Below, piece by piece: positions 25,672 through 45,848 of a stretch of DNA of 64,000 nucleotides. The position numbers were made by a program, and so were the translations under genes. Below the pieces are notes generated by a model. It saw only the letters and a program-made list of their open reading frames with translations, had not been told where the DNA came from and searched no databases. The stretch's first letter is position 1; every line of letters starts with the position of its first letter. The stretch covers positions 26,005-90,004 of the forward strand of contig CALWAL010000007.1 of assembly GCA_944373145.1 (NCBI GenBank). The letters run 5' to 3'. The DNA comes from an uncultured Bacilli bacterium. GTDB lineage: Bacteria > Bacillota_I > Bacilli_A > RF39 > UBA660.

Positions 25672-25740
25672 TAATAGTCGATAATTCCTTGATTTTACAG
25701 GGTTTTATCAAGTTACTTTTTAATCCAAATTAGATAATTT

Positions 25741-25792
25741 AAGACTAAATCTAAATATATCGTCGCATATATTTACGGATTTAGTCTTTTTT
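25741..25792 (+). terminator. Element-supplied terminator for ppdK
   Basis: AAGACTAAATC-TAAATATA...TATATTTA-cg-GATTTAGTCTT followed by TTTT. Confidence 0.7.
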
Positions 25793-25831
25793 CGTGGAAT
25801 TCTGCGATGAAGAAATGGAGGTAATTACTGG

Positions 25832-26305
25832 GTGAAATTGATGTATTCTAGGCCAATATTAAGGGATTTATCGCAGGGCGCACGTATAGCTTTTGTAAGG
25901 CAGTTTAGGGCGAAGACACAGGATGAAATAGCTGGTTTGTTAGGTGCAACTGGCGAATGCAGAAGAAGGACTATGACAAGATATGAAAAGGGGGATAGAA
26001 ATCCTACCACAGCAAGAGCCAAGCTTATTGCTGAATTATTAAATGTTAATTATCATGCCATTAAGCAATATGATTACAAAGAACCATTGGATTTTATCTA
26101 TACTTTGTTATGGATGGAGGAGTTACTGCCTAATTATCATTTTGATGTAGATGATGTATTTATTACTGATGTGGATTTCCTTAATACTATTAATGCCTTT
26201 CTGAAAGAATGGGAGATTATGAAGAGAAAGAGAAAGAATAGGGAGATTAAGTATTCAACTTACATTGAGTGGAAGCTATCATATTCTTTCGAGGACAGAA
26301 AATGA
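25832..26305 (+). CDS. XRE-family HTH transcriptional regulator
   Basis: IAFVRQFRAKTQDEIAGLLG...MTRYEKGDRNP. ATGA overlap with the parB-like gene. Confidence 0.8.
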   Translation: MKLMYSRPILRDLSQGARIAFVRQFRAKTQDEIAGLLGATGECRRRTMTRYEKGDRNPTTARAKLIAELLNVNYHAIKQYDYKEPLDFIYTLLWMEELLPNYHFDVDDVFITDVDFLNTINAFLKEWEIMKRKRKNREIKYSTYIEWKLSYSFEDRK

Positions 26306-27141
26306 ATGGTACTAAAGTTATTAAGATAGTGGATATAGAACCGTTTAAGGATCATCCATTTATAGTTGAAGTTGATGACTCGTTGAAAGAATTGGCACAG
26401 AGTATTATGGAGAATGGTTTATTAAATCCTATTATTGTAAGAGAGAAAGGTAGTAAGTATGAGATGGTTTCTGGTCATAGAAGATTAAAAGCATTAGAGA
26501 TGAATGGTGCTGATGAAGTAGACGCATTTGTTAAAGCTTTATCCGATGATGAAGCTACTATATTTATGGTTGACTCTAATCTTCAAAGAGAGAAGATACT
26601 TCCTAGTGAAAGGGCATTTGCATATAAGATGAAGATGGATGCTTTAAAGCACCAAGGCAAAGCTTTGTCTCCTAAGGGAACAAAATCACATTCGGTCGAT
26701 GAGATAGCAGATACAAAGACTCAGGTCTTTCGTTATATAAGACTTACTTACTTGATTCCGGAACTGTTAAAGATTGTTGATGATACTGCTAGGACTAACG
26801 ATAAGCACAATATAACAATGGGTATTAGACCTGCTGTAGAATTGTCTTACTTGAGTAAGGATGAGCAAAAGTTGGTGTATTCAGAGATGATTTATGATGA
26901 TTTAAGTCCTTCACATGCACAAGCAATCCGAATAAGGAAGTTGAGTGAGAAGAAGAAACTAGATGCAGACAAGCTAGAGAAGATATTATTGGAGAAGAAG
27001 GGAAACCAACATGAGCAGATATCTTTTAATAAGGAGAATATAGAGAGTGTTTTGCCTTATGATCTGCTTAAGAGAGATAAGCGTTATATTGAAGAATATA
27101 TTATTGAAGCTATTAAGGCATATAAGAAGGGTAATAGATAG
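26302..27141 (+). CDS. ParB/RepB/Spo0J-family protein
   Basis: PFKDHPF, LAQSIMENGLLNPIIVR, YEMVSGHRR (ParB box) and NLQRE.ILPSERAFAY. Confidence 0.9.
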   Translation: MNGTKVIKIVDIEPFKDHPFIVEVDDSLKELAQSIMENGLLNPIIVREKGSKYEMVSGHRRLKALEMNGADEVDAFVKALSDDEATIFMVDSNLQREKILPSERAFAYKMKMDALKHQGKALSPKGTKSHSVDEIADTKTQVFRYIRLTYLIPELLKIVDDTARTNDKHNITMGIRPAVELSYLSKDEQKLVYSEMIYDDLSPSHAQAIRIRKLSEKKKLDADKLEKILLEKKGNQHEQISFNKENIESVLPYDLLKRDKRYIEEYIIEAIKAYKKGNR

Positions 27142-27149
27142 ACAATGTA

Positions 27150-27177
27150 AAAGGAAAGAGAGCTTTCTCTTTCCTTT
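27150..27177. terminator. Bidirectional terminator between parB and the convergent MTase gene
   Basis: AAAGGAAAGAGA-gctt-TCTCTTTCCTTT. Confidence 0.8.
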
Positions 27178-29407
27178 AGTTTTCTTCATCTTCTTCAACT
27201 GTTTCCATATCGTTAAATAGTTTCTTTGTATTTGTGTGATACCTATATTGGTATACTTCTAGTTCTCTTTTAAGAGCTAATTCAAGTTCTGTATATTTCG
27301 CTTCCATTAGTGTTAGCAATAGACAAATATCTGCTTGAGCACCTAGTGGAATAACCGGAATTGTTAATTGTCTAAAGTCTTCAAGTGTAATATAGTTAGT
27401 AGGTGAAGAAGTGTTGTTATAGTATCTTTTGATATGTTTATTGATTTTTTCTACAAAGTAGTCTGATTCTAATACATATCTTAGATATGCGGGTGATACT
27501 TCGTCTTCTATATTTTTAAATGGTCTTAATCGAAATACACTATCCGAGAATATAAAGTTAGGTTTTTGTACTATAGCTGCCTTAGTACCTTTTGAGTAAA
27601 TAGCGAATAATACATCATCCTTTTTCAACTTTCCTTTACTAATGAACTCATCTAAGTCTTCTTTTCTTATTCTTTCTGTATGAATAGTTTTGTTTTCTTT
27701 GATATACATTAGCGAACTGTCTTCCATAACAGCACCATTTTGTATTTCCTTTGTTGTAATATAACGATATGGGAAATTATCGTTGGTATCTATTTTCATG
27801 TCTTTTATTTTAGAACCAATAGTTATATCGGCAACATTAACTAGTGGAATCATTTTAATTTGATTGCTTTGTTTTAGTTGTTCTAAAGTATTGACTATAC
27901 ATTTGTTAACCCTTTTAATTTGTGTATTATACTTTAAACGTGATTTGTAATTAGCTTCTTCTTCATTCTCGTAAATGAAATCAGATAAGCATACATCTTC
28001 AATAGTTGTAAATGTGTGTTCTTTTTTATAATTAATGTAGTCACAAATATTTAATGAATATTTGTGATTTGCTATTTCTTCTGGAGTTGCTAAGTACGAT
28101 AGGTTGTCTATGCTCTTTCTACCTAATATAAGTTCTATGATGTTATCTATATTTTCATCACTAAAAGTTACTTGATTACTATTCTTAGTGCATATGTTAC
28201 CTGCATCAACAAATAATATATTGTTGTCTGTTTTGTTTTTTCGAATCAGAAACAGACATGTACCGGTATCAGTTCTTAGGAACATCTTTCTAGGTAGTAG
28301 TATTATTGTATCTATTTGATTGCTATCAACTAAATGTTTTTTTACTGCGGTTTCTTCAGGATTTGTTCTGGATAACATGTTTGGTGTGTCAATTGCCAAT
28401 GCTAATCCATTTTTATTTAGTGTGTATATGATGTGGTATATGAATGCCCAATCAGCTAACTCTTTATTAGGAAGAGGTTTGTCATTGAATCTCTCGTCGT
28501 CTTCTCGCAAAGCTGATTTATTCCAAGGTATTCCAAATGGTGGGTTAGCAAATATCAAATCGTACTTTTCTTTTTCTTCTTTATCATAAGTTAGCAATGT
28601 ATCACATTGAGAAATTTTAAAGTCCCTTACATTATGTATTATCATATTCATTCTACACAACATAGCAGGTATTGCATTTAATTCTTTGCCATAGAAAGGT
28701 ATAGTATTGTTAAATCTTGCATATTCGGTTAATAATGAACCACTTCCACAAGTAGGATCGTAGATGTTATTAGGATCAGTGATATATTGGTCTGAAATCT
28801 TTTTTAATAGTTTTACTATTGATGGTTGAGTATAGAATATGCCATTTTTAAGACTCATGGTATTGTTTGTATCTTTATTGTTTAGTAAGAATTCAAAGAT
28901 ATTACCAAATAAGTCATAATCAGATTTGTTAATGTCATAGTCAACATCTGATATAGCTTTTAATATGGTTGAATATATATTACTCCTTATATTTTGACTA
29001 GTTCCAATACCTTCTGCTTCAGTATCTATGTTTCTAAAGATTTCACATATCTCATATTTAGAAGACTGCTTGATATTCTTGAATATTGAGTTTAATGTTG
29101 AATCTAAACGACTACTATTCAATTCTTTTGCTACAATATTTTGGAATAAGTCTTCTGGGTATATGAAGAAATCTATATCACTTTGTACTTGAGATTTATA
29201 TGCTTCTGCCTCATTGTTATTTAGTTCAATATAATTTACATTGAAGCTAGTTTGAATATGCTTGATTATGCTTTCGGAAAGAAAGCGGTAGAATAAGATT
29301 AAGTATATGTATTTTTCATAACTAGTTATATCCTGACCTTTGTTATATCCTGTCAAAGCTTTTTTTAAGTTTTTTGTGATTGTTCCAACACTTTTCATTC
29401 TTCCCAT
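27176..29407 (-). CDS. Type I-like N6-adenine DNA methyltransferase (HsdM) fused to a single HsdS-like target recognition domain
   Basis: HsdM N-domain, FYTQP, DPTCGSGSLL (motif I) and ANPPFG (motif IV). The C-terminus has a TRD pattern (RYITTKEI, LKKDDVLF, YLRYVLES, FRQLTIPVIPLGAQ) plus a long helix. Confidence 0.85.
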   Translation of the reverse strand: MGRMKSVGTITKNLKKALTGYNKGQDITSYEKYIYLILFYRFLSESIIKHIQTSFNVNYIELNNNEAEAYKSQVQSDIDFFIYPEDLFQNIVAKELNSSRLDSTLNSIFKNIKQSSKYEICEIFRNIDTEAEGIGTSQNIRSNIYSTILKAISDVDYDINKSDYDLFGNIFEFLLNNKDTNNTMSLKNGIFYTQPSIVKLLKKISDQYITDPNNIYDPTCGSGSLLTEYARFNNTIPFYGKELNAIPAMLCRMNMIIHNVRDFKISQCDTLLTYDKEEKEKYDLIFANPPFGIPWNKSALREDDERFNDKPLPNKELADWAFIYHIIYTLNKNGLALAIDTPNMLSRTNPEETAVKKHLVDSNQIDTIILLPRKMFLRTDTGTCLFLIRKNKTDNNILFVDAGNICTKNSNQVTFSDENIDNIIELILGRKSIDNLSYLATPEEIANHKYSLNICDYINYKKEHTFTTIEDVCLSDFIYENEEEANYKSRLKYNTQIKRVNKCIVNTLEQLKQSNQIKMIPLVNVADITIGSKIKDMKIDTNDNFPYRYITTKEIQNGAVMEDSSLMYIKENKTIHTERIRKEDLDEFISKGKLKKDDVLFAIYSKGTKAAIVQKPNFIFSDSVFRLRPFKNIEDEVSPAYLRYVLESDYFVEKINKHIKRYYNNTSSPTNYITLEDFRQLTIPVIPLGAQADICLLLTLMEAKYTELELALKRELEVYQYRYHTNTKKLFNDMETVEEDEEN

Positions 29408-29539
29408 TATAACACCTCCATTTAATCAGTAAATATTATACCACTTTTTAACCGATTTTAGAATGTAACTACAATAATCAATGTTATTAGTTTAAATATC
29501 CCAATCTATATATCTGTCTTTTTGATTAGTCAAAATATA

Positions 29540-29558
29540 TCCCAAGTAACACTAGGGA
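29540..29558. promoter_or_regulatory. Operator-like palindrome, copy 1
   Basis: TCCCAAGTaacACTAGGGA, 17/19 identical to 36924-36942. Confidence 0.6.
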
Positions 29559-29662
29559 AGTTTTTGAAGTGAATTATGATGGTTGAATGTGCTCAGAAAT
29601 GTTTTAGTTTTTATAATAATTAATACCACTTTTTGTATATTTTAGAGTAAATTGGTTACTAA

Positions 29663-29844
29663 ATTTCGTACAATACTATGACAATTGTTAGATTACCTTT
29701 CGAGTTTATTATGGTGTTTTTTACTTTTTTGATAGTTTAGTGAAAAATGTCTTTTAGATTTCGTATAGTAATGTGACAGTTGATGGATTGTCTGGTTAGT
29801 TCTTCACCTTCACAACTTTTAAGATAATCCATCAATAATTGTCA
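29663..29844. repeat. Imperfect 32-bp direct repeat plus long inverted repeat
   Basis: 29663-29694 and 29758-29789 match at 25/32. TGACAGTTGATGGATTGTC (29774-29792) is inverted, with a small insertion, at 29823-29844. Confidence 0.55.
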
Positions 29845-30290
29845 GTTTAATTTTATATTACTATGATGGTTGATGAATCATCGGATTTACAGCGACGTTT
29901 TTACAACTTAGTGCGAGATTGCCAACTCGTTAAACGCAATAACAATACTAAAGATACTAATACTAATAATCAAAACATTAATTTTAATAAGAATATTAAC
30001 AAGAGAAAGATAAAAGATAATATTCAGTGATCTAGACGGTATTTTGTAATTTAGAGAATGGGGATATTTAAACATTAAGAACACAGGAACCCCAATTATA
30101 TTTATAGTATCGACGTACAATTTCACTAGAAGATGTATATGCAGATATAAGATGATTATTTTATTTGATTAAGCTGGTCAAGCGGAGATTTTGAAGTGAC
30201 TATGGTTATTTATACTAGTTTTGCTTTAAAGTCTCTCAAACCGGTTTAAAGTTGCTAAATATTTTGAATTTAGAGAGGATTTGAGAATGT

Positions 30291-30680
30291 ATGAAAGCAC
30301 ATTGGATTGTTAAACTTAAGAATCCATTTAATGGAATGAAGCTGGTTGCTTATGAAGATGGACGTGTCTATGTTGGTGGAACTGGACCTTTAATTGGTAA
30401 GCTTAAATCAACTTCTATGAAGAAAATTAGATATTACATCAACGAGTATGCCCATTATATCAAGATAGTTGGATATGAAGTTCAGGATATATATGGATTT
30501 ATAGCCAAGTTCTGGGATAATAGCAATGTTAAGCGTGATGACCTGACGGTTAAAGGTTGGCCTTACGAGCGTGAATTCCTAGAGATTATATTTAACAAGA
30601 ATTCATATCGTAAGTTTTTGATTGGTGATGGTGAGTTTGTTTCTATTATGCATGATTATTTATTAACTTCGTTAGATTAA
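30291..30680 (+). CDS. Hypothetical protein
   Basis: 129-aa ORF with a GAGG RBS upstream. Confidence 0.65.
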   Translation: MKAHWIVKLKNPFNGMKLVAYEDGRVYVGGTGPLIGKLKSTSMKKIRYYINEYAHYIKIVGYEVQDIYGFIAKFWDNSNVKRDDLTVKGWPYEREFLEIIFNKNSYRKFLIGDGEFVSIMHDYLLTSLD

Positions 30681-30695
30681 GCATGCAGAGGAATG

Positions 30696-30900
30696 AAACT
30701 GGTTTTGTTTTTATCAGCAACTGCTGCAGGTAAAACTGGTTCTGGGGATCGTTGCATGAAGCGTTGCTTGATTCGGTGGATCCGGCGTAGCTTGTAGGAG
30801 AGCAAGTTACCGGTTTTACCTAATCCTATTTGTAAGAACATTACCTAGTGGTATTTATACTTTTATATGGATTTTTAGTGCAACGAAGTGTGGGTTGCCT
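30696..30900. other. GC-enriched structured non-coding segment of unknown function
   Basis: 13-bp stem AGGTAAAACTGGT/ACCGGTTTTACCT (30728-30821) encloses sub-hairpins. A GCAAC...GTTGC hairpin lies near 30880-30898. Confidence 0.45.
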
Positions 30901-31012
30901 TTTCTGCTGTCTTCACAATGTGCTGGAGTAAGTAATAATATTTATATTCTGTTCTATTTCCTATTGATTAAGTTTTACTTTTAAGGTTAAATACAAAATC
31001 AAAGGTGAATAG

Positions 31013-31360
31013 ATGATGAAAGATACAAAGATAGATAGATATATTGATAAATCACTTCTTCCAAAACATCACTATATAACACTAGAACTAGTTAGAAGGA
31101 AGTTTATCAGCAGTGAATCGGATTTTGATTTATACCTGTATGATGCTCTATTTGAAGAATTATTGTTGAGATATGACTTTAAGACAGTTATAGTTGCAAC
31201 AAATTACGTTGCTACGAGAGTTAAACAGCAGCAATTTTGCTCGGAAGATGGAGCCAAGATCGAGAACTTATATGCCTATTTTAGGTCTTCTATTACATTT
31301 AACCTAAGAAAGATTACTAATCAGATAGATTTTGATTGGTTGAATGATGATTATGATTGA
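31013..31360 (+). CDS. Hypothetical protein, possibly resembling a replication-initiator C-terminal domain
   Basis: 115-aa ORF with AAGGTGA RBS and an IENLYAYFRSSI motif. Confidence 0.6.
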   Translation: MMKDTKIDRYIDKSLLPKHHYITLELVRRKFISSESDFDLYLYDALFEELLLRYDFKTVIVATNYVATRVKQQQFCSEDGAKIENLYAYFRSSITFNLRKITNQIDFDWLNDDYD

Positions 31361-31593
31361 TTTCCTTATAGTTTTTCTACCTTTTTTAGGGTTTTTGCAG
31401 CTTTTTTATATATTTTAGTAGAACATCCTATTGTAGAAATGTCCTGCTATTATGAGAAAAATATTACGATTTTGAAACGTCTTGATTTTTGCTTCTTTTC
31501 TCTGTTAGTGGGTATTTCTATTACTTTGTTCGAAAGATTCTTCAAATGGGCAGAGAATGCCGAATCAGGTGGTTATTTGAGAGGAGTTGTACT

Positions 31594-32025
31594 ATGAGAA
31601 CTTGGCTGGTTAAGCTTGAAAGATACGATAAGAACTGGATTACCTTGTATGATGATGCAAATGTATTAACCTATGGAAGAAAGAAACCTTATGTTTTGAA
31701 GAAATCAGCGATGGAAATGGTACAAGAATTGATTAGTGAGTATTCTGCTGATGATTCAACTGCTGATTTTGATCAAGATTGCATTATCAAATGTAATATC
31801 AATCCGAAACTAGTGAGCCATAATCGTTTGTTTTTTAATCAGATGGTGGCAATATTATTTGATTTTAGAAATATTAAGCATCCAGATAGTCGTCTAGGTC
31901 CTATATTAGAGGAAATAGAACGTTTAAGAGCAGATGGAACACTACAAGAGATGATAGACACAGATGGTCAAGATGCTGTTATAGAACAATTAATTATGAA
32001 TTTTAGTGATAGAGATAGCGATTAA
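31594..32025 (+). CDS. Hypothetical protein
   Basis: GAGGAG RBS precedes ATG 31594. A terminator follows. Confidence 0.65.
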   Translation: MRTWLVKLERYDKNWITLYDDANVLTYGRKKPYVLKKSAMEMVQELISEYSADDSTADFDQDCIIKCNINPKLVSHNRLFFNQMVAILFDFRNIKHPDSRLGPILEEIERLRADGTLQEMIDTDGQDAVIEQLIMNFSDRDSD

Positions 32026-32122
32026 TGAGTGATTGCTCTCTTTTTATTTGGTTTTAGAGATGAATTATATGTTTATTTTATCAACTTTTTATGGTACAAC
32101 ATGGTTAGTATGGAGGTAAAAT

Positions 32123-32443
32123 ATGTTTAGACCTAAGACTGATGATGACATTACTGAAGAAGAATTTGTAACGATATTATCACCTTTCGTTGATAAATGT
32201 CATGAATACATAGAGAAGAAACTTATTCCAGTATATGTTGCTTACTATATAGCAGAAGCATACAATACAAGTTCTTTAGAAGAGGATACTTATGATATTT
32301 TCATAAACTCTGCCTTATGTTCATTTAATATTGAACCTGCTAATTATGAAACTATCAAATCTGATACTACAAAGCTGCTAGAGGATGAATATCACTTAAG
32401 AGTAATAAGCGAAGATCCACTAGATTTTGAAAGAATATTCTGA
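32123..32443 (+). CDS. Hypothetical acidic protein
   Basis: GGAGGT RBS, 106 aa. Confidence 0.65.
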   Translation: MFRPKTDDDITEEEFVTILSPFVDKCHEYIEKKLIPVYVAYYIAEAYNTSSLEEDTYDIFINSALCSFNIEPANYETIKSDTTKLLEDEYHLRVISEDPLDFERIF

Positions 32444-32567
32444 TCCTATGTTATTTGACAATAGATGCTTTAGTTGGAATTATAGTTTAAGAATTATTGT
32501 TTATTTCATTTAAATAGCTGTATAATTATTTAAAGCACGTTATTATACAAAGCGGATGGTGATGTAA

Positions 32568-32795
32568 TTGAATAAGCTTATTCTTGAGTTTCCTACATTC
32601 GAAGAGATAAAAGAAGTTTTATCTAAGGAACTACCTGATATCATTGAGATAACATTTAAGAGTCAAGAAAACAATGCTAAAGAGTTTGAAATAATATATT
32701 ATTTGGTTAATTGTACTGATTACTTTTTTGAATCGTTAACGCCAACTGATGATTCACGTACAAACTTTATAGCACACTTTAAAAGGAAGAGTTAA
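32568..32795 (+). CDS. Hypothetical protein
   Basis: 75-aa ORF with TTG start and GGTGA RBS. Its stop lies in a bidirectional terminator (32781-32808). Confidence 0.55.
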   Translation: MNKLILEFPTFEEIKEVLSKELPDIIEITFKSQENNAKEFEIIYYLVNCTDYFFESLTPTDDSRTNFIAHFKRKS

Positions 32796-32824
32796 TTCTC
32801 TTCCTTTTCTATGATTAATAGACT

Positions 32825-33097
32825 TTAATCGATTTTTTTTGTTACGTTACTAGATTCTGGTTCTTCAAATAATTTTGATAACGGTATTCCAAGAACTTTA
32901 GCAAACTTATATGTAGTACCGATACTTGCTGTTTGAAATACTTTTTCAGATTCAAGATTTTTTATGAAACTCAAAGCATACAAACTTTTTTCAGCGAGTT
33001 GTTCTTGTGTCATACCTGCCTCTTTTCTATACTTTTTTAGATTTTTAGCTAATATTGTGTAAGCATAGTTTTCATCAATTTGGTTTTTATTATTCAT
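32825..33097 (-). CDS. XRE-family HTH regulator, divergent from the zinc-ribbon genes
   Basis: LAKNLKKYRKEAGMTQEQLAEKS...FIKNLES...AKVLGIPLSKLF. Confidence 0.88.
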   Translation of the reverse strand: MNNKNQIDENYAYTILAKNLKKYRKEAGMTQEQLAEKSLYALSFIKNLESEKVFQTASIGTTYKFAKVLGIPLSKLFEEPESSNVTKKID

Positions 33098-33277
33098 TTG
33101 TCCCACCCATAACAATTATCTCAATAATAAGTTAAATATTTAGTATGTTGTTCGTAGACTTTTGTGGTATAATAATTATATAGTAAGTTGTTTTCATGGA
33201 AGTAGTTTAATGATTTTGTTTACCGAAATATTTGAAGATAGTAGCTTTTATGAAGAAAGTTAGTGATGGTGATTGAT

Positions 33278-33814
33278 ATGGCATTAATTAAATGTGTTGA
33301 GTGCGGAAAAGAGATTAGTGATACAACCGATATATGCGTTCATTGTGGTGCACCTACTTCTATTTCAACTAAGCGTAACGATAATGTTGTTACTAAATCT
33401 AAGAGGAACAATAAACGTAACATCGTCATTTTTATTGTTGTATGTTTATTAGTTTTTTGTATTGTAATTATTGTTGTACCTTTTTTTATAAACCTTAGAA
33501 ATAAGGATATATTAGCTTCTGATACCTTAGATGCTGAATATTCAGCACCTGAGCTAGAATATATTTATGGGGATGCGATGAGAGTTATATTTGAATTTAA
33601 AGATGATGGAACAGCAATTTATCAACGTTGCAATGCTAAAACTGATGCTTGTGCAGATCCTCATTCATATACTTATAAGAAATACGGATTAGATGTAGAT
33701 ATTTATGGCAGTGGTAATAACCTTTTATATGATTGTTCTTTAAAAGACTCTGGCAAGTTTCTAAATTGCTACGATATGAGTGGTCAATATCAAGATTATG
33801 CAAAGACTAATTAA
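33278..33814 (+). CDS. Zinc-ribbon header protein 1 (single TM plus extracellular domain)
   Basis: MALIKCVECGKEISDTTDICVHCGAP, followed by a TM helix IVIFIVVCLLVFCIVIIVVPFFI. Confidence 0.8.
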   Translation: MALIKCVECGKEISDTTDICVHCGAPTSISTKRNDNVVTKSKRNNKRNIVIFIVVCLLVFCIVIIVVPFFINLRNKDILASDTLDAEYSAPELEYIYGDAMRVIFEFKDDGTAIYQRCNAKTDACADPHSYTYKKYGLDVDIYGSGNNLLYDCSLKDSGKFLNCYDMSGQYQDYAKTN

Positions 33815-33841
33815 TTTAAGAGTAAGAAAGGAAGGAAAATT

Positions 33842-34192
33842 ATGGCACTAATTAAATGTAAAGAATGTGGAAAAGAGATTAGTGATACTGCTAATGAATG
33901 TGTTCATTGTGGATGTCCTTTAGGTAAAGTGAAGTTCTATACTTCTAATAATTGGACAGGTATAGCGAGTAGATATATTATCTCTAATAATAATGGACAA
34001 GTTCTTGCTAAACTAAAAGGTGGCGAAGAATTTGAAATAAATATTGATGAAGATACCAAATTTTATGTTCGATGCAATACTACTCTTAGCAGAAAAAAAC
34101 ATGAAGTTGTAGCATATGCATGTAAGATTAATAAGTTTCTAGTCGAAATAACTTTTATGGGAGCAAGTACTCGTGTATCAGAGATTAATTAA
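33842..34192 (+). CDS. Zinc-ribbon header protein 2 (soluble beta-rich tail)
   Basis: MALIKCKECGKEISDTANECVHCGCP. No TM. Confidence 0.8.
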   Translation: MALIKCKECGKEISDTANECVHCGCPLGKVKFYTSNNWTGIASRYIISNNNGQVLAKLKGGEEFEINIDEDTKFYVRCNTTLSRKKHEVVAYACKINKFLVEITFMGASTRVSEIN

Positions 34193-34212
34193 TATTTTAA
34201 AGGAGGAAAATT

Positions 34213-34665
34213 ATGGCATTAATTAAATGTAAGAGTTGTGGTAAAGAAATTAGCGATAAGTCTACTAAATGTGTTCATTGTGGTTGTGATACTGATTATT
34301 CAATTACATATTTTTGTTCTGAGTGTGGTAAAGAGTTTGATAACATTAAATGTATGAATTGTGGTTATTCTCCTAATAATAAGAAAGATACTACTAATCA
34401 ATCAGCGAATGTTGGTTTTAATTTTAAACCATTATTAATAAGTTTAGCAGTAGGAATTATTACTTTTATTATCATGTCCTATGTTGAAGGGATTTTTATT
34501 GTGGACATATCTGTGTCAATAATACTATTTTTAACTTGTTTGGGAGCTCTAACTGGTTCTTTGGATGATTTTGTTGATACAATGGACGATTTTCATGCAA
34601 GTACAGATAAAGATCCTTATAAAAGAGCTTTGTACAAGGAAATTAAGAAGAATAACAAGAAGTAA
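34213..34665 (+). CDS. Zinc-ribbon header protein 3 (double zinc ribbon plus two TMs)
   Basis: MALIKCKSCGKEISDKSTKCVHCGCD, second ribbon CSECG...CMNCG, then two hydrophobic segments. Confidence 0.8.
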   Translation: MALIKCKSCGKEISDKSTKCVHCGCDTDYSITYFCSECGKEFDNIKCMNCGYSPNNKKDTTNQSANVGFNFKPLLISLAVGIITFIIMSYVEGIFIVDISVSIILFLTCLGALTGSLDDFVDTMDDFHASTDKDPYKRALYKEIKKNNKK

Positions 34666-34721
34666 TTGCTATAAAAGACTATTTACTATGGTACAATATA
34701 CTTAACTGAGGAGGTTCAATT

Positions 34722-35420
34722 ATGACTAAAAAAATTGGAATTAAGAAAATTGAAACTAGTATTCCTTGTGATGTTTTTGTTTCGAGTATAGATGGAATCG
34801 TTGGTGCATCAAAAGGTGTTAATCTAGATGTTTACTTCACTTCTAAGAAAATTTATGAATTAGAAGATACCATGTTTGTTGTACTTGACATGTATGATGG
34901 TACCGGTGAAATGAAAGCTTTATTAGTGGGTAATAGAGATAAAGAATTTACTTCACTAGTTGATGGTATTAAGATTGATGCCGATGTAAGATATAGAATA
35001 AGTGGTAATGTTTCTATACCTTCTGACACTGATGATGTGGAGTTACCTTTTATGAATGATATTAAGAATAATAAGTTGTTTTGTATTTATGCTTTTCAAA
35101 GAAATCCTAAATCAACGTATTGTGAACTAAAACATCTTGCTAGGACAGAGATTGAGAAAGTTCGTGATGGTATAAGTACTGTTCAACAAAGTATTATTGA
35201 TAGTCTTAAGTATGATAAAAGTATTTCTATGGAAGAACTTCATATCATGTATTGTTTTGATGGTGATGGTGGTTTTGATCTAGACATACATCAATTTTAT
35301 GATTTATATGTAAGCCCATTGATAAAGAGTAAAGAAATTAAGGTGTGCAATTTAAAACAATGTTCTAAAGAGAAACCTTTACCAATGCCAGAATTTGAGC
35401 TTATGTATAATTGTAATTAA
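34722..35420 (+). CDS. Hypothetical protein with possible OB-fold
   Basis: GAGGAGG RBS. VLDMYDGTGEMKALL...YRISGNV resembles OB-fold nucleic-acid-binding domains. Confidence 0.6.
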   Translation: MTKKIGIKKIETSIPCDVFVSSIDGIVGASKGVNLDVYFTSKKIYELEDTMFVVLDMYDGTGEMKALLVGNRDKEFTSLVDGIKIDADVRYRISGNVSIPSDTDDVELPFMNDIKNNKLFCIYAFQRNPKSTYCELKHLARTEIEKVRDGISTVQQSIIDSLKYDKSISMEELHIMYCFDGDGGFDLDIHQFYDLYVSPLIKSKEIKVCNLKQCSKEKPLPMPEFELMYNCN

Positions 35421-35486
35421 TAGACAGAGATTAATTCTCTGTTTTTTCTAAAGACGCTGTAATTTTGTTTAATGTATGTTTTAATG

Positions 35487-35678
35487 TAGAAGATGCTACA
35501 TATGCTGTAGTACCTGAAGACAACATCAAGAGGTAGCTCCTCTTGTGAAGATACATGATGTGGTTTGATTCCGGTTAAATCATGGAAGGGTTATAAGTGA
35601 ACGATTGTCCCTAGTGCAGTAAACAAGCGCCGCCATTTAGAACTTTAGCAAGATAGACTTTGTAGTCTGTCTTTTTAT
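35487..35678 (+). ncRNA. Candidate ~190-nt structured non-coding RNA, family unrecognised
   Basis: Possible extended -10 (TGtTTTAAT) upstream, four successive hairpins and an intrinsic terminator AAGATAGACT-ttgt-AGTCTGTCTT-TTT. No ORF. Confidence 0.4.
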
Positions 35679-35831
35679 TTGGCCTAATATGGGTGTAAAC
35701 GAAATCATTTGATTTCTTTTATATTAGAAACTTGTCCAAAATGCGTTGCTTTTTATCTGAATTTAAGTGATTTATATAAACGAAATGTGAAAGATGTTTT
35801 CTTTTACACTTTAGAAAAGAGGTAATTTAAT

Positions 35832-36434
35832 ATGGAAAGCAAAGTATGGGGTTACTGCCGCTGTTCCACCAACGATTCAAAACAAGATGTCAAGTATCAG
35901 ATTGATGCATTAATTGATAAAGGTGTAGATATATCTAATATAAGGTATGAGTATATTTCTGGTAGGAAGGAACATAGACCTGGACTTGATGCACTGTTAG
36001 AAGAAATGAATGAGGGTGATACTTTAATAGTTACTGATATTACTCGTTTGTGTAGGAATACAAAGGTTTTGTGTGAAATAATTGATTTGATTATTGCAAA
36101 GAAATTTAGGCTTATTGTTGGAAGTATTGATATAGATTGTAGGAATGGTAGTTTAGATCCTATGATTGAAGGTATGCTAAAAATTAACGCGGTTTTTGGG
36201 GAGATGGAAGCAAAACTGAAAATACATCAAATCCATTTAGGATTAGCTACAGCTGTTAAGGCTGGTAAGAAGTTAGGACGTCCTAAGTCAACTTATGATG
36301 ATATTCCAAAGGTGTTTATGCAGTATTATCCTAAGTATAAGAATGGAACTCTAAACAAAATGGCTTTTGCTAGAGTTACTCAATTATCGTATCCAACTAT
36401 TTATAAGTACCTAGATATTGTTGAGAATGCTTAG
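35832..36434 (+). CDS. Small serine recombinase (resolvase/invertase family)
   Basis: GYCRCST catalytic motif, EYISG...RPGL, GDTLIVTDITRLCR, GKKLGRP and C-terminal HTH. Confidence 0.93.
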   Translation: MESKVWGYCRCSTNDSKQDVKYQIDALIDKGVDISNIRYEYISGRKEHRPGLDALLEEMNEGDTLIVTDITRLCRNTKVLCEIIDLIIAKKFRLIVGSIDIDCRNGSLDPMIEGMLKINAVFGEMEAKLKIHQIHLGLATAVKAGKKLGRPKSTYDDIPKVFMQYYPKYKNGTLNKMAFARVTQLSYPTIYKYLDIVENA

Positions 36435-36569
36435 TAGTAGTTATTATTAAGAGAACTTTTTGCTAAAGTTTTCTTTTTTTTTGATTAATCTGAGTTTTAT
36501 TCAAAATATTTCGTATAACAGTATAGTTGCTTTTTCCATAATGGGCAACTAGAAAGTAAGGTGATTTGT

Positions 36570-36893
36570 ATGAATTATGGTTATTATGTAAAAGGAAGAA
36601 GTGAGATGGAAAATTGGGATACTTATTATGATGTGTATTGTTATGTCCCAGATGACGAGAAAATCTTTTGCGACGAAATAGGCAGTAGTAAAAATTTGGA
36701 TTATCTTCTTGATATTATGGGAGAAGGTGATAGCCTTCATCTCACTAATCTCTTTGATTTAGGAAGAAGTTGGGATAAGGTTATTAAGGCTTTGTACATT
36801 CTTAATGATAATAATATTAGATTGTTTGTTATGAACGATGAGGTTAATCTTGATGATGTAATATATGTAATTACAGGTGCCGAAGTAGCTTAA
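36570..36893 (+). CDS. Degenerate resolvase-like protein lacking the catalytic YxRxS motif and the HTH
   Basis: IFCDE...LDYLLDIMGEGDSLHLTNLFDLGRS...IRLFV matches the resolvase core. The N-terminus reads MNYGYYVKGRS. AAGGTGA RBS precedes ATG 36570. Confidence 0.65.
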   Translation: MNYGYYVKGRSEMENWDTYYDVYCYVPDDEKIFCDEIGSSKNLDYLLDIMGEGDSLHLTNLFDLGRSWDKVIKALYILNDNNIRLFVMNDEVNLDDVIYVITGAEVA

Positions 36894-36923
36894 TAAGCTA
36901 CTTTTTTAATGTTTGATTTTTAT

Positions 36924-36942
36924 TCCCAAGTAGGACTAGGGA
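36924..36942. promoter_or_regulatory. Operator-like palindrome, copy 2
   Basis: TCCCAAGTaggACTAGGGA, upstream of the microprotein-integrase genes. Confidence 0.6.
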
Positions 36943-37145
36943 GAATTTTCACACTATTGTCTGGTAAGGATGTACGTATGTCTTTTAGTGAGAATATTTA
37001 TGTATTAATGCTTGATAATTCGCTGTTTTTATAAGGTTTTTAGCACTTTTTTCAACTTTTTGCATTTAAAATTGCGAAACGCCTGACACAAATCGTAACA
37101 ACTAACAAGCTCGTTTGAGAGTTTTGGAAAGTGTGGTGGATTATT

Positions 37146-37307
37146 GTGTCTAATAGGATTGATTTCAAACTTAGTGATTCAAATAAGAAAATACTTAATA
37201 TGAATCTTGCTGTTGAGATTATTAGAAACTTATTATTTGTAAATGAAGTTATAACTTCAGAAGAGTTTCAAAATGTTATTAAGTGTGCTAATCGTAGTGT
37301 CAAATGA
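37146..37307 (+). CDS. 53-aa SHOCT-like microprotein upstream of the integrase (absent from the ORF track)
   Basis: GTG start behind GGTGGA. Sequence is MSNRIDFKLSDSNKKILNMNLAVEIIRNLLFVNEVITSEEFQNVIKCANRSVK*. Confidence 0.55.
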   Translation: MSNRIDFKLSDSNKKILNMNLAVEIIRNLLFVNEVITSEEFQNVIKCANRSVK

Positions 37308-37351
37308 TTGTATAAAAGATATTAAGATTAAAATAGAGGTGAGAAATTATT

Positions 37352-39079
37352 ATGGATTCAATATGTTTTTATGCTCGTGTTTCCACGAAGCATGAATCTC
37401 AATTATATTCTTTTGAGAACCAAGTTCAATTATATGATATGTTTTTAGTAGAGCATTCTCATGAGAATTGGGAAGTATATGATAGATATTTTGACAAAGG
37501 TATAACAGGTACTTCGATGAAAAAGCGTAAGGGTTTTTTAAGGATGATAGATGATGCTAAACGTGGTTGCTTTAATACTATTATAACCCGTGAGGCTTCT
37601 CGTTTTGCAAGAAATGTTCAAGATACTCTTAATGTTTCAATTGATCTTGTTGAGAGAGGTATTAGACTTATTTTTATTGAAGATAAGCTAGATACAAAAC
37701 AAGATGAAGATTGGAAAAGTAGATTAACACAACTTGCTATTGATGCTGAAAAGCATTCAAAAACACAATCAGTCAACGCTAAAGCAGGTCAAAAAATATC
37801 TAGAGCGAAACATGTATTATATGGTAATGGGAATGTATTAGGTTATGATAGAGTAGGAAAGGAATATGTCATTAATGCTGAGCAAGCTAAGGTTGTTAGA
37901 TTGATTTTTGATATGTGTTTACGTGGAAGCGGAAGTAGAGATATTCAATACGAACTAGAGAAGAAAAACTATCTTACATCAACCGGTTTAGAGAACTGGA
38001 ACGTTGCAACCATCACAAGAATACTTCGTAACTCGATATATTGTGGTACTGTTGTTTACAATAAAAGTTATAGTAGTGATTATTTACATCAAAAGCGTAT
38101 TCTTAATAAAGGAGAAGTAGAGCAACTCGTTGTAGAAGATAGAGTTCCGGCAATTGTTTCTAAAGAAGATTTTGCTAGAGCACAGGAGATACTTGATAGC
38201 CATAAAACTAATAATAAAGGTGTAGTGACTACGGTTGGGAAACCACCGACTACTATCTTTGGGAAGAAACTCAAATGTAGTTGTGGATATAGTATGCAGA
38301 AAAAGAAATATCATACATATAAGGATGGACATACTGCCTATTGTTATCAATGCTATGACCAAGTAAATAGAGGCTCTTTTACCTCTAGAAAGAAACACGG
38401 TGTAAGTGTTGAAGGTGTTTGTGATACAAAAATAATTCCAGATTGGAAATTGAAATTAGCATCCTATACTATATTTGATATGTTAATTGATAGAAGAGAG
38501 GATATTATCGATATTATAGATAAACTACTAGAATCAGCGGTTGATGATGATAAAAATCTTCTATGTAGTGAGCAGGAGTTTTATGAAAAAGAAATAGAAG
38601 CCTTGAAGAGAAGGATATCTAAGTTAATGGATTTATATACTAATGAATATATAACTCTGAATGAGTTTAACGAAAAGAAGAAAGAAATAGATACCACAAT
38701 GAATGAATATAATGCTAAACTAAACAAACTTATAACTAATAAGTGTATAACTCCAAAAACAATTAGTGAACGTTTAGCTGAATGTAAAGATATAATTACT
38801 AATAGTTTTATGAATTATAAAGATGGAACTACATATGAGTTGTTAGTAGATTCTTTTGTTGATAGAATTATTGTAAGTAATGATAAGCTTGAATGGCATA
38901 TGAGATTAACAAAAGAAATTAAAATGCCGCTTGATGATGTTATAAGAGAGAAAGAAGTGTTTATAGGTACATTATCACTTACTAAAGATGACGCTACATA
39001 TTATTCTAAGTATTGCAATGATTTATCTAGAGTATGCTTTGATAAAGCATTGCTGGTTGATATATATCTTATGTTCTGA
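37352..39079 (+). CDS. Large serine recombinase (integrase)
   Basis: FYARVST...Q, YFDKGITGT, REASRFAR, LGYDR, recombinase domain (ILRNSIYCG), zinc ribbon (KCSCG...YCYQC) and coiled coil. Confidence 0.95.
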   Translation: MDSICFYARVSTKHESQLYSFENQVQLYDMFLVEHSHENWEVYDRYFDKGITGTSMKKRKGFLRMIDDAKRGCFNTIITREASRFARNVQDTLNVSIDLVERGIRLIFIEDKLDTKQDEDWKSRLTQLAIDAEKHSKTQSVNAKAGQKISRAKHVLYGNGNVLGYDRVGKEYVINAEQAKVVRLIFDMCLRGSGSRDIQYELEKKNYLTSTGLENWNVATITRILRNSIYCGTVVYNKSYSSDYLHQKRILNKGEVEQLVVEDRVPAIVSKEDFARAQEILDSHKTNNKGVVTTVGKPPTTIFGKKLKCSCGYSMQKKKYHTYKDGHTAYCYQCYDQVNRGSFTSRKKHGVSVEGVCDTKIIPDWKLKLASYTIFDMLIDRREDIIDIIDKLLESAVDDDKNLLCSEQEFYEKEIEALKRRISKLMDLYTNEYITLNEFNEKKKEIDTTMNEYNAKLNKLITNKCITPKTISERLAECKDIITNSFMNYKDGTTYELLVDSFVDRIIVSNDKLEWHMRLTKEIKMPLDDVIREKEVFIGTLSLTKDDATYYSKYCNDLSRVCFDKALLVDIYLMF

Positions 39080-39181
39080 CAACTAAGTAATACACTTAGT
39101 TGTTTTTATGTTATAATAATGTAGTAATATTTAGATGTAGTCTGATATGTGATATATCTTCCTCTTATATCCTACAACCGT

Positions 39182-39189
39182 ACAAGCTG
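39182..39189 (+). other. attR core of the large element, which is also the left core of the relic island
   Basis: ACAAGCTG, followed in frame by AIKEKNNK* (stop 39213-39215) and a terminator at 39230-39262. Confidence 0.8.
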
Positions 39190-39373
39190 CTATCAAAGAA
39201 AAAAACAATAAATAACACATAATAAATATAGACTGAGATTAAAATTAATCTTAGTCTTTTTTGATATGTGATAGTAAAAGATAACAATATATATAATGTT
39301 AAAATATCTTTTTATAGTATAATAGAATTAATAGATAAATAGTAATTTATTGTTATGATTGGAGGAAAAGAAA

Positions 39374-39727
39374 ATGGGAAAAGTAATTGTATTATTTGAG
39401 GTTACAATAAAAGATGGAAAGAAAGATGATTATTTAAAGAGAGCTGAAATCTTAAAAGCACATTTAAAGAATATGAAAGGTTTTATATCTGCTGAAAGAT
39501 TTCAATCTTTAGCAAGCGAAAAGAAAGTATTAAGTATGACAGTATGGGAAAATGAGGAAAGCGTTCAAATTTGGAGAAATTTATCTGAACATAGAGAAAG
39601 CCAATTAGCAGGTAGAATGGAAGATTTTGAAGATTACAAAATAACAGTAGTTACACCAATTCGTGAATATGGAATGAATGATAGAACTAATGCACCTAAA
39701 GATTCAAATGAATATTTTAACGTATAA
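39374..39727 (+). CDS. Antibiotic biosynthesis monooxygenase (ABM)-family protein
   Basis: GFISAERF, SMTVWENEES...WRNLSEHRESQ..GR. GGAGG RBS. Confidence 0.85.
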   Translation: MGKVIVLFEVTIKDGKKDDYLKRAEILKAHLKNMKGFISAERFQSLASEKKVLSMTVWENEESVQIWRNLSEHRESQLAGRMEDFEDYKITVVTPIREYGMNDRTNAPKDSNEYFNV

Positions 39728-40926: not shown

Positions 40927-41465
40927 AAAGGTGTAAATGGTGTAATCTAAATAATCCAAATTATATTGAATACCACGATAACGAATGGTGCAGACCAAAC
41001 TTTGATGATAAGTATTTATATGAAATGCTAATATTGGAGTCTTTTCAAGCAGGATTATCTTGGGAATGTGTTTTAAATAAAAGGGATAGTTTTAGAAAAG
41101 CATTTGATAATTTTGATATTGATAAAGTTTGCTCTTATGATGAAAATAAGATAAACGAATTATTGAATAATAAAGGCATTATTAGAAATAAATTAAAAAT
41201 AAAAGCAAGTATAAATAATAGTATAATCTTCAAAACGATAGTTAATGAATATGTGACATTCCATAATTATTTAAAATCATTTACACAAGATAAAACAATT
41301 TATGAAATAGATAAAACAGGTAACGAATTGTCTGATAATATATCAAATGACCTAAAAAAACGAGGAATGAAATTTGTAGGAAGTACAATTATATATTCTT
41401 ATTTACAGGCAATAGGGGTTATCTATTCACACGATGAAGAATGTAGTTTGTATAAAGCAAATTAG
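40923..41465 (+). CDS. tag: DNA-3-methyladenine glycosylase I
   Basis: RCKWC, YHDNEW, LESFQAGLSW and FVGSTIIYSYLQAIG...H. Confidence 0.93.
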   Translation: MKRCKWCNLNNPNYIEYHDNEWCRPNFDDKYLYEMLILESFQAGLSWECVLNKRDSFRKAFDNFDIDKVCSYDENKINELLNNKGIIRNKLKIKASINNSIIFKTIVNEYVTFHNYLKSFTQDKTIYEIDKTGNELSDNISNDLKKRGMKFVGSTIIYSYLQAIGVIYSHDEECSLYKAN

Positions 41466-41592
41466 AGCGACAACTTACAATTTATCAAGTAGATGAAAAA
41501 ATATTTTTTGGTACAATTAAGATGCGTATTGAAAAAATAAGCCAAATAGTATTTGTTTTTGACAAAAAACACTCCACGAATATTACAGTGCT

Positions 41593-41626
41593 ACAAGCTA
41601 CAGTTAAAGAAAAATTAAACAAATAA
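41593..41626 (+). other. Third att core plus probable native ppdK 3' end (QA-TVKEKLNK*)
   Basis: ACAAGCT at 41593-41599, in-frame tail ending at TAA 41624-41626, followed by a strong terminator and resumption of backbone genes. Confidence 0.72.
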
Positions 41627-41646
41627 TCGAAGGCAATTTAATAGTT

Positions 41647-41676
41647 AAAAGCAAGCTAAGATATTAGCTTGCTTTT
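41647..41676 (+). terminator. Probable native ppdK terminator
   Basis: Perfect 13-bp stem AAAAGCAAGCTAA-gata-TTAGCTTGCTTTT. Confidence 0.85.
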
Positions 41677-41785
41677 AATGTAATTTTGTATAGTGTTTGT
41701 AGGATTTGATATTCGGCAAAATTTTTATTCTTTTAATTGCTTTTATTAATACTTTTGTATTATAATTATAGTAGGTGATACAAGA

Positions 41786-42682
41786 ATGAAAATATTGTGT
41801 ATAGGACATGCGGCTTATGATATTACCACTCCTGTCGATAGCTTCCCAGTTGAGAATACAAAAAATAGAGTTCAGGAACGTATTGAATGTGGTGGTGGAC
41901 CTGCTGGAACAGCTGCATATCTTTTAGGTAAATGGGGGATGGAAACTTATTTTGCTGGCATTGTTGGTGATGATTTATATGGACATAATATTGCTAAAGA
42001 ATATGCTACAGTTGGTGTAAATACGGATTATTTACAAATTAGTTCACAGCACACGACAACATCAAGTTATATAATTGCTAATCGCGAAAATGGTAGCAGA
42101 ACAATACTTACATATAGACCTAGTTCGATGAAGATGAACCCAGTTAAGATTGACATCAATCCAGACATGATTATTATTGACGGTCAAGAACCTGAAGTGT
42201 CAGCGCAAGTGTTACGTGATAATCCAAATGCGATTAGTATTATTGATGCGGGACGCGATCGCAAAGAAATTAGAGATTTGTGCAAAATGGTTACTTATGT
42301 AGCTTGTTCGAAAGATTTTGCTCAATTAGTAAGCGGTATTTCAATTTATGATGATGAAAGTTTAAATTATGCTTTTAAAAAATTAGAAGAAGAGTTTAAC
42401 ACTAAAATTATTATTACGTTGGAAGCCACTGGTTGTGCTTATCGTAACGAATCAGGTAAAGTGGAAATTGTTCCTTCTATAAAAGTTAAAGCGATTGATT
42501 CAACTGGTGCTGGCGATATTTTTCATGGAGCTTTGGGGTATGCTTTAGCACTTAAATGGCCGTTGCCGGAGGCTTTAAGATTTGCCAATATTGCTGGAGC
42601 GATGTCTGTAACTCGTATAGGTGGTCGCAATTCAATTTTTGAATTAGATGAAATGTTAGAAGTTTATAATGAAATTAAGTGA
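41786..42682 (+). CDS. PfkB/ribokinase-family carbohydrate kinase
   Basis: GGGPAGTAAY.LGKWG and AIDSTGAGDIFHGA. Confidence 0.9.
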   Translation: MKILCIGHAAYDITTPVDSFPVENTKNRVQERIECGGGPAGTAAYLLGKWGMETYFAGIVGDDLYGHNIAKEYATVGVNTDYLQISSQHTTTSSYIIANRENGSRTILTYRPSSMKMNPVKIDINPDMIIIDGQEPEVSAQVLRDNPNAISIIDAGRDRKEIRDLCKMVTYVACSKDFAQLVSGISIYDDESLNYAFKKLEEEFNTKIIITLEATGCAYRNESGKVEIVPSIKVKAIDSTGAGDIFHGALGYALALKWPLPEALRFANIAGAMSVTRIGGRNSIFELDEMLEVYNEIK

Positions 42683-45845: not shown

Positions 45846-45848
45846 AAG

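Follow-up and report, generated by a model that had tools for sequence, protein, structure and literature searches.

Why should three neighbouring genes begin with almost the same amino-terminal sequence when nothing that follows is alike? The question is raised by a tandem array of three plus-strand genes, here called zr1, zr2 and zr3, seen in the open reading frame (ORF) list and the sequence of a 64-kb stretch of DNA from an uncultured low-GC Bacilli bacterium of the chicken gut (the window below means this whole stretch). The array lies in an integrative element with a large serine recombinase and is a new, unnamed set of small proteins headed by a zinc ribbon of the Pfam family PF13240. 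We consider that it is probably an accessory operon for membrane proteins, carried by this element as cargo and composed of three separate families that share a generic ribbon. A first-pass annotation had proposed a modular system in which one constant header carries variable payloads.

Results

Three genes with one header

The proteins encoded by zr1, zr2 and zr3 all start with MALIKC..CGKEISD....CVHCG, as the first-pass annotation had noticed and as the ORFs confirm. The DNA of this header constitutes the largest direct-repeat family of the element (family D1, 89 nucleotides (nt), three copies with 69-82% identity, Table 1). Within the first 72 nt, zr1/zr2 and zr2/zr3 each agree at 58 positions and zr1/zr3 at 54. 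The spacers between the genes measure 27 nt (zr1-zr2) and 20 nt (zr2-zr3), and a GTG at 33263, upstream of the ATG of zr1, provides an alternative in-frame open start. Alignment also bears out the start context GGAAAATTATGGCA common to zr2 and zr3 and the abrupt end of all similarity between the three genes past the second CxxC, both of which had been remarked earlier. The tails are likewise as first described, namely a transmembrane (TM) segment plus ectodomain in zr1, a soluble beta domain in zr2, and a second ribbon plus two TM segments in zr3, with a divergent XRE gene upstream.

A six-frame scan of the window found no further header of the same type: three headers inside 1.4 kb and none elsewhere in 64 kb are not clustered by chance, and chance co-location is ruled out by this single cluster together with the conservation of the arrangement in over 20 loci. 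A recent tandem duplication followed by divergence of the tails was also rejected, since the tails have no sequence similarity and differ in predicted fold, and since the full-length orthologs of each gene have diverged as much as those of the others. That the tails are unrelated, as first claimed, thus holds in sequence and in predicted fold, and simple duplication is not supported. For comparison, 21 related loci (L001-L021) were fetched via an exact-protein look-up.

Table 1. Features of the window and, where an L number is given, of related loci.
Feature	Position	Strand	Evidence or remark
Integrative element, ~13.5 kb, at the 3' end of ppdK	25641-39188		Pfam matches, shared core
ppdK	23038-25671		flanking gene
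ABM-family gene	39359-39727		flanking gene
XRE-type helix-turn-helix (HTH) regulator	32825-33115	-	HTH_19 E 1.3e-10, HTH_3 E 9e-9
Divergent intergenic region XRE-zr1, 162 nt	33116-33277		promoter-like sites face-to-face
zr1	33278-33814	+	178 amino acids (aa) counted from ATG
zr2	33842-34192	+	116 aa
zr3	34213-34665	+	150 aa
Header repeat copy 1 (ribosome-binding site (RBS), start codon and ribbon codons of zr1)	33264-33352	+	family D1, 69% vs reference copy
Header repeat copy 2 (zr2)	33828-33916	+	family D1
Header repeat copy 3 (zr3)	34199-34287	+	family D1, 82% vs reference copy
232-aa protein, unknown family	34722-35420	+	no Pfam, PHROGs, PADLOC or NCBIfam match
Resolvase	35832-36434	+	Pfam
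Large serine recombinase	37352-39079	+	Pfam
Hydrophobic gene region of relatives	L002-L005:7176-7994; L009:7672-7947; L011:7117-7392; L018:7215-7481		

The header is a widespread ribbon

At the Pfam gathering cut-off of 25 bits, PF13240 (Zn_Ribbon_1) recognises zr1 (26.8 bits) and zr2 (27.6 bits); zr3 scores just below it (24.4 bits) and also matches, with its second ribbon, DZR (24.7 bits) and Zn_ribbon_3 (E 7e-5). All three proteins possess the four cysteines of the CxxC...CxxC pattern (C6, C9, C20 and C23). These cysteines are all invariant in the zr1 alignment; in that of zr2, C6, C9 and C23 are invariant and C20 is missing solely in the relative P0002; and among the zr3 orthologs, which were read from the loci rather than aligned, L006 and L008 have Ser in place of the Gly after the first CxxC. 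Judged by its sequence, the header is a generic N-terminal four-cysteine (C4) zinc ribbon of the PF13240 type, for which zinc binding is predicted.

Homology searches with each of the genes return few full-length relatives, followed by many proteins that match over about the first 25 residues only. These header-only matches are 70-92% identical, occur on proteins of 64-289 aa and are accompanied by quite different Pfam domains; in the sequences sampled, MALIKCKECGKEISDKA..C.HCG is found near-verbatim ahead of tails that are multi-TM, thioredoxin-like, acidic-linker or of other kinds; one of these proteins is annotated Bacteroidales. A pattern scan confirmed 516 header-bearing stretches in representative genomes, predominantly of Bacillota, with further carriers in Bacteroidia, Prochlorococcus, Sulfurovum, Nitrospinaceae and one Pseudomonadota genome; the same scan of 2.9 million viral contigs gave 321. 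Because the header recurs near-verbatim on hundreds of unrelated tails across phyla, the pattern of constant header and variable payload is a property of the domain family and not of this locus, and the view of the header as something special to the array is not upheld. In the papers found, statements on the function of the PF13240 ribbon are predictions and hypotheses only (PMC3355149, PMC11237479, PMC10328498), and a literature search returned no paper on tandem PF13240-headed arrays or on header function, which does not prove that none exists.

Three families with different predicted folds

Behind the common ribbon, each gene has full-length relatives of its own. Those of zr1 form 19 clusters (at 90% identity) that are 51-97% identical to the query; zr2 has seven (53-95% identity), plus remoter 132-aa relatives of the same architecture, and zr3 about 22 (39-98%). 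The families keep header and tail together down to 40-50% identity, and the variants of the header track the type of gene rather than the locus, with the signatures DTTD[IV]C[IV]HCGAPTS in zr1, DT[AS]xxC[IV]HCGCP[LI]GK in zr2 and, in zr3, DKSTKCVHCG followed by the second ribbon. By all appearances zr1, zr2 and zr3 are three old, separately conserved full-length families.

Structures were modelled with AlphaFold2 from family alignments and compared by Foldseek against the PDB. The model of zr1 begins with a low-confidence ribbon and a basic linker that is disordered. A TM helix (model helix 44-80) follows, and then a beta domain of eight strands (residues 85-178) with a predicted local distance difference test score (pLDDT) of ~90 (ectodomain blocks 89-93). 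Since positive charges precede the TM helix, the ribbon is placed in the cytoplasm. The ectodomain, in which four Cys are invariant across the family alignment, finds its best matches in small lipocalin-like barrels (BT_0846, 2m4l; YedD, 4hwm; 3lhn; the N-domain of NlpE), at a probability near 1 and an E of only ~0.01. zr1 is thus predicted to consist of a cytoplasmic C4 ribbon, one TM helix and an outer lipocalin-like barrel. zr2 is modelled as a ribbon with an all-beta sandwich (pLDDT 76) that has no TM segment and only generic beta-sandwich matches (best E 0.002). The sequence of zr3 reads as a second CxxC...CxxC ribbon, two hydrophobic segments and a K-rich C-terminus, the latter kept in all relatives as PYKRALYK.IKKNNKK or ERAMYNQLKRNGKKK; the protein should be a double ribbon followed by a two-helix membrane hairpin with both ends in the cytoplasm. 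A sequence search of the PDB with zr3 brought up only unrelated eukaryotic C2H2 fingers and small archaeal ribbon proteins, by way of the Cys pattern, and the PHROGs matches of the array proteins are restricted to the header.

An exhaustive search with the ectodomain of zr1 alone found few relatives, which carry diverse heads. The zr1-type ectodomain stands behind a ribbon and TM segment in P0128, P0275 and P0280, behind lipoprotein signal peptides in P0277 and P0278, and behind an unrelated, non-ribbon cytoplasmic head with a TM segment in P0281, whose ectodomain is by eye closely similar to that of the ribbon-headed P0280. Heads are thus exchanged as well as tails, and the ribbon with its TM segment appears to behave like one among several interchangeable membrane anchors.

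Header DNA and coding constraint

We calculated the codon expectation from the codon usage of the window itself. Averaged over the header, codons for the same amino acid should be identical by chance at a share of 0.57; the observed share is 0.70 when paralogs of one locus are compared, 0.69 when the paralogs come from different loci, and 0.71 between orthologs. The corresponding nucleotide identities of the header are 0.73, 0.71 and 0.84. Gene conversion keeping the headers alike is ruled out, as paralogs within a locus resemble each other no more than paralogs from different loci. The likeness of the header DNA would then largely be that of conserved amino acids written in AT-biased codons. 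The match of 61/78 nt between the headers of zr1 and zr2, to which the first-pass annotation had drawn attention, can be put down mostly to conserved protein in AT-rich codons, with a modest excess that is equal across the classes of comparison. Exact shared runs between headers in the window reach 16-20 nt only. When folded as single-stranded DNA, the three header stretches give -2.7 to -5.7 kcal/mol with hairpins that are not common to the three, and there is no shared hairpin or inverted repeat among them, so that nothing resembles an attC or a recombinase site.

Arrays vary, with junctions at the headers

The composition of the array differs between relatives. zr1-zr2-zr3 is found in the window, L001 and L003-L005, zr2-zr3 in L002, and zr1-zr3, without zr2, in L006-L013 and L016-L021; zr3 is present in every array of the element family and zr2 is an optional member. 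In the more distant L014 and L015, zr2 is followed by a 214-aa protein that combines a double ribbon like that of zr3 with a single TM segment and a different tail, and then by a 559-aa ribbon-TM-ectodomain protein. Closely related elements thus differ in the presence or absence of the same three tails, and different tails occur only in L014/L015. An array fixed in all homologs, which the first-pass annotation had named as evidence against its proposal, is not what we observe, zr1 or zr2 having been lost in relatives.

Several junctions can be located. L002 and L003 share 99.76% identity across the 7.5 kb upstream and 97% downstream, and zr1 is exactly missing from L002, in which the RBS of zr1, together with its unusual GTG start, runs directly into the body of zr2; the crossover lies inside TGGCATTGATAAAGTGTA, 18 nt that are identical between the two headers. 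The two-gene arrays that were aligned (L006, L008 and L009) retain the entire 27-nt spacer of the zr1-zr2 type up to the ATG, zr3-type sequence taking over within the first ~six codons, and the remaining two-gene loci have the same spacing. This arrangement would result from loss of zr2 by recombination between the headers of zr2 and zr3, or from its gain by the reverse event; repeated loss from a three-gene ancestor is simpler because the zr2 orthologs are about as diverged as those of zr1 and zr3. Finally, the window and L008 are 97.9% identical over 31122-33912, that is to the end of the zr2 header, and past 33912 fall to 75-87% nucleotide identity, with a zr3 protein that is ~58% identical. 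Among the loci compared we found losses and this one mosaic junction only; no near-identical background had gained a new tail.

The aligned junctions show that the headers do act as recombination points producing loss and mosaicism, and this recombination looks like a by-product of the repeats, ordinary homologous or slipped, rather than a dedicated mechanism. The comparison of arrays that had been recommended earlier therefore gives a divided answer: composition differs and breakpoints lie at the header, but turnover of the tails is not fast. The same is true of the two ideas attached to it. A recombination handle accords with the header-to-header loss of zr1 and with the mosaic junction, but not with the lack of homogenisation and of a recombinase-type hairpin; a modular payload system accords with junctions at the header, but not with stable families in fixed order in elements diverged to 40-65% identity.

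In four DNA metagenome runs, from chicken gut and other sources, contigs end or fork at the zr2 header (33840-33913), where summed depth spikes (115 versus ~6-10 on either side in X9). The breaks arise because genes in other organisms carry the same header, and are an assembly hazard. No clean deletion variants were found among the DNA metagenome contigs on the window.

Ribbon-headed rows in other genomes

Tandem rows of ribbon-headed genes are common in Bacillota, as indicated by 16 of 80 header-bearing genome loci (L022-L101) that have at least two such genes adjacent (e.g. L033, L039, L042, L059, L065 and L067). The most striking, L064:473-6532 (CALVKN010000043), comes from a metagenome-assembled genome (MAG) of an uncultured Bacilli bacterium that also carries a zr1-zr3 element (L025). 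It contains nine consecutive same-strand ribbon-headed genes, whose headers (MALIKC.ECGKEISD...C..CG) have a mean nucleotide identity of 78% and share exact runs of up to 46 nt. Their tails are of multi-TM, lipocalin-like, SH3-like and thioredoxin-like types and are unrelated, showing no BLAST similarity beyond one second-ribbon match.

The host element and its relatives

Both ends of the element bear the core ACAAGCT (25641 and 39182). The core alone was also found again at ~41593, ~2.4 kb to the right of the element. Between its ends the element holds HTH and ParB-like genes, an N6 DNA methylase, small unknown genes, the XRE-zr operon, the resolvase and the large serine recombinase. The XRE protein matches transcriptional repressors in PHROGs and small control proteins in PADLOC (HTH_VI, capH, control protein of restriction-modification (R-M) systems). 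Every related locus has an HTH gene here, albeit in some cases a different one. XRE is the only one of these proteins matched in PADLOC-DB v2, zr1, zr2, zr3 and the 232-aa protein having no match at E <= 0.01. The gene of the 232-aa protein is probably the last of the array operon. The window and L008 have 75% nucleotide identity over 34567-35099. Relatives hold one to three unknown genes of 300-330 aa after zr3 (e.g. L002-L005:8872-11886) where the window has one 232-aa version. In L002, two of these downstream genes are ~67% identical to each other in nucleotides. Most relatives also have, between HTH and zr1, a very hydrophobic gene of 83-113 aa that is absent in the window.

In the related loci a block recurs that consists of HTH (minus strand), usually the hydrophobic gene, zr1, optional zr2, zr3, one to three unknowns and the resolvase, with R-M genes usually nearby. 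It is found in large-serine-recombinase backbones (L001-L005, L009-L012 and L016) and in tyrosine-integrase backbones (L006, L007 and L020); since it accompanies either type of integrase, the block moves between backbones as a cargo module. The serine-recombinase end abuts an Amidase_3/LysM gene in L009:15957-16528, L011:14921-16126 and L016:15692-16471, and a 100-aa Amidase_3 gene lies upstream in L001:29-331. This family may integrate in or beside an amidase gene; the copy in the window is at the 3' end of ppdK instead.

Full-length zr1 occurs in just five species-representative genomes, all of them MAGs of uncultured gut 'Bacilli/Tenericutes', and the sequence of the window was detected in chicken-gut metagenomes. 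An origin from a phage is unsupported: Pfam finds no phage structural genes in the element, the phage relatives of its serine recombinase are distant (best 37% identity), and the 2.9 million viral contigs contain no full-length relative of zr1, only header-level matches. The placement of the array in a lysogeny module, suggested by the first-pass annotation, is doubtful for these reasons.

Operon and expression

The region between XRE and zr1 has promoter-like sites at 33155-33184 on the plus strand and at 33197-33169 on the minus strand, and an extended -10 element, TGGTATAAT, can be read from the sequence at 33165-33173; all are consensus matches only. No terminator-like site was found between 33278 and 35420, and a hairpin follows at 35424-35442, directly past the 232-aa gene. 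RNA-type data consisted of contigs assembled at low depth from one metatranscriptome and three chicken-gut runs labelled 'RNA-Seq'. In these libraries, contigs of 177-234 nt that match with 0-1 mismatch cover zr1 (33313-33546 and 33306-33490), the zr1/zr2 junction (33733-33936), the zr2/zr3 junction (34123-34299) and zr3 (34439-34650), and three more near-identical contigs (150-256 nt, 2-6 mismatches) map between 30.5 and 35.4 kb. None falls on the methylase, ParB-like or recombinase genes of the element, and none of comparable length on 19 kb of flanking chromosome (41000-60000). This suggests that the array is co-transcribed, above the level of neighbouring chromosomal genes. The restriction of contigs to 30494-35387 may mean that the central operons are strongly expressed, or that a close relative of the element outnumbers the host.

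Discussion

Comparison with known systems

An architecture of ribbon, TM segment and extracellular domain has been described for YARHG-domain proteins (PMC3355149). Like zr1, these proteins combine an N-terminal, predicted cytoplasmic C-x2-C-x(12)-C-x2-C ribbon with one TM segment and a variable outer domain, and the paired ribbons of PF12773 (DZR) resemble the double ribbon of zr3. In contrast to the YARHG type, however, the tails of the array match no described domain, zr2 has no membrane segment, and the genes sit in a conserved mobile-element operon, a feature that the YARHG literature does not discuss (PMC3355149). In the published model of Staphylococcus aureus TcaA, a zinc finger lies inside the cell, the membrane is spanned once and a large part of the protein is outside (PMC10328498). 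Residues 5-75 of zr1 align to residues 3-74 of TcaA (NCBIfam NF053815; E 3e-5), but the 23 bits obtained, against an equivalog cut-off of 550, exclude membership. TcaA also differs in its length (463 aa), its large unrelated ectodomain, its chromosomal location and its cell-wall phenotypes, leaving only the anchor module in common. In Bacillus subtilis, YdjG of the ydjFGHI PspA operon has two ribbons, a TM segment and an NTF2-like domain (PMC11237479). Compared by description, YdjG resembles zr3 in its double N-terminal ribbon followed by a membrane segment and in its operon with membrane-associated proteins. Unlike it, the array has no PspA, band-7 or TPM-domain partner, and zr3 ends in a TM hairpin and a basic tail.

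Temperate phages and mobile elements undergo modular mosaic exchange at short conserved module boundaries. The junctions of the array are similarly confined to a short conserved stretch (RBS, ATG and first ribbon codons); here, though, the stretch is a protein-domain coding repeat present three times, which causes deletions within one element. The likeness to integrons and shufflons is superficial and lies in co-oriented genes that each follow a similar short sequence, with recombinase genes near. Unlike integrons, the array has no attC-like hairpin, its repeat is translated, each gene has its own RBS, the payloads are stable over long divergence, and the junctions fit homology rather than a fixed cut site.

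The favoured reading and the points against it

We propose that zr1, zr2 and zr3 stand nearest the promoter in a single operon within the element's cargo region, zr1 and zr3 being a constant pair and zr2 an optional cytoplasmic partner. Their products would work at the membrane, as accessory proteins that the element encodes and XRE controls locally, and the ribbon may serve as a common cytoplasmic cap or interaction knob. One may add, tentatively and as a best guess that we would not press, that the constant pair and its optional partner act at the membrane in envelope-level exclusion or defence, to the benefit of the host or of the element. This guess is prompted by the constancy of zr1 and zr3, the cytoplasmic ribbons of all three proteins, the portability of the block beside R-M genes, the resemblance of the HTH neighbour to defence control proteins and the apparent expression of the array in the gut.

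Several observations weigh against this picture. The array is transcribed away from XRE, shares its orientation with the genes for resolvase, replication and integrase, and could belong to the element's own induced programme instead of being cargo that benefits the host. Three of the four RNA-type runs are doubtfully RNA, and carry-over of DNA or a commoner relative of the element could explain the contigs. On the functional side, the tails have no match in Pfam, PHROGs, PADLOC or NCBIfam, and the PDB fold matches (E 0.002-0.01) are too weak and generic for a function to be derived. With identical codons at 0.70 where 0.57 is expected, there is residual constraint on the DNA, or shared ancestry. 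The header residues other than Cys (ALIK, GKEISD) are strongly conserved across unrelated proteins and argue for one specific partner shared by these ribbons.

Alternative explanations

The proposal of the first-pass annotation, a dedicated system of constant header and variable payloads in which the header is a docking or degradation tag and a selected recombination handle, accounts for the varying composition of the arrays, for junctions at the header, for the two ribbon-headed genes with other tails that follow zr2 in L014/L015, and for the rows with unrelated tails in 16 of 80 header loci, above all the nine genes of L064 with their exact runs of up to 46 nt. Yet only losses and one mosaic junction are documented, a new tail was never seen in a near-identical background, the three old families keep a fixed order, and their headers are type-specific instead of being homogenised within a locus. 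Exact runs of 16-20 nt in the window would moreover serve RecA-type insertion poorly, the headers have neither a hairpin nor an inverted repeat in common, and in many phyla unlinked genes throughout the genome bear the same header; we therefore regard such a system as very unlikely. Only slightly easier to accept, and still quite improbable to us, is the broader notion that the header rows of gut Bacillota, with their common ribbon-coding start of ~70 nt, are a homology-driven cassette platform that deletes and captures tails, all members docking through the conserved header residues other than Cys to one cytoplasmic partner, in which case capture from other header-bearing genes would build rows like that of L064.

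Signalling from the membrane is a different matter. The ribbons could bind nucleic acid or a regulator and the zr1 barrel sense an extracellular ligand, so that the trio passes envelope signals to an XRE-controlled switch between excision or replication and continued integration. Genes that adjoin the divergent XRE promoter region and lie upstream of same-strand resolvase, replication and integrase genes would suit such a role, as would the predicted outer barrel of zr1, of a ligand-binding lipocalin-like type; ribbon-TM-ectodomain proteins have been read as possible tethered transcription factors or stress signalling proteins (PMC3355149, PMC11237479). We nonetheless think it unlikely, for one ribbon of 24 residues is not a strong candidate for recognising a DNA sequence, the window shows no protease, kinase or sigma factor linked to the array, zr2 lacks a TM segment, and the block occurs with different backbones (serine or tyrosine integrase, replication genes) without being tied to one switch. 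A membrane-damaging effector, with zr3 as a class II holin-like or abortive-infection (Abi) pore that zr1 and zr2 modulate and XRE keeps off, would explain why the topology and K-rich C-terminus of zr3 are conserved in all relatives, why zr3 is the sole member present in every array, and why an XRE gene is adjacent. We give it little credence: the element has no endolysin or lysis cassette, the 55-residue N-terminal double ribbon is not a holin feature, no holin or Abi model was matched, and apparent transcription in ordinary gut samples fits poorly with a lethal product. An accessory membrane-protein operon of three families with a generic ribbon remains the reading that we prefer.

Significance

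As the finding stands, the array is an ordinary accessory operon, well characterised. The PF13240 ribbon is, however, among the commonest N-terminal modules of small membrane proteins in Bacillota and mobile elements, and the array offers a compact three-gene test case in which the same header is placed on an extracellular, a cytoplasmic and an intramembrane partner, with natural deletion variants at hand. It also illustrates how a protein domain that is encoded in repeated copies gives rise to hot spots of recombination, by which the cargo regions of mobile elements are remodelled. Should the ribbon prove to bind one shared partner, thousands of hypothetical proteins now listed as 'zinc-ribbon domain-containing' would become annotatable.

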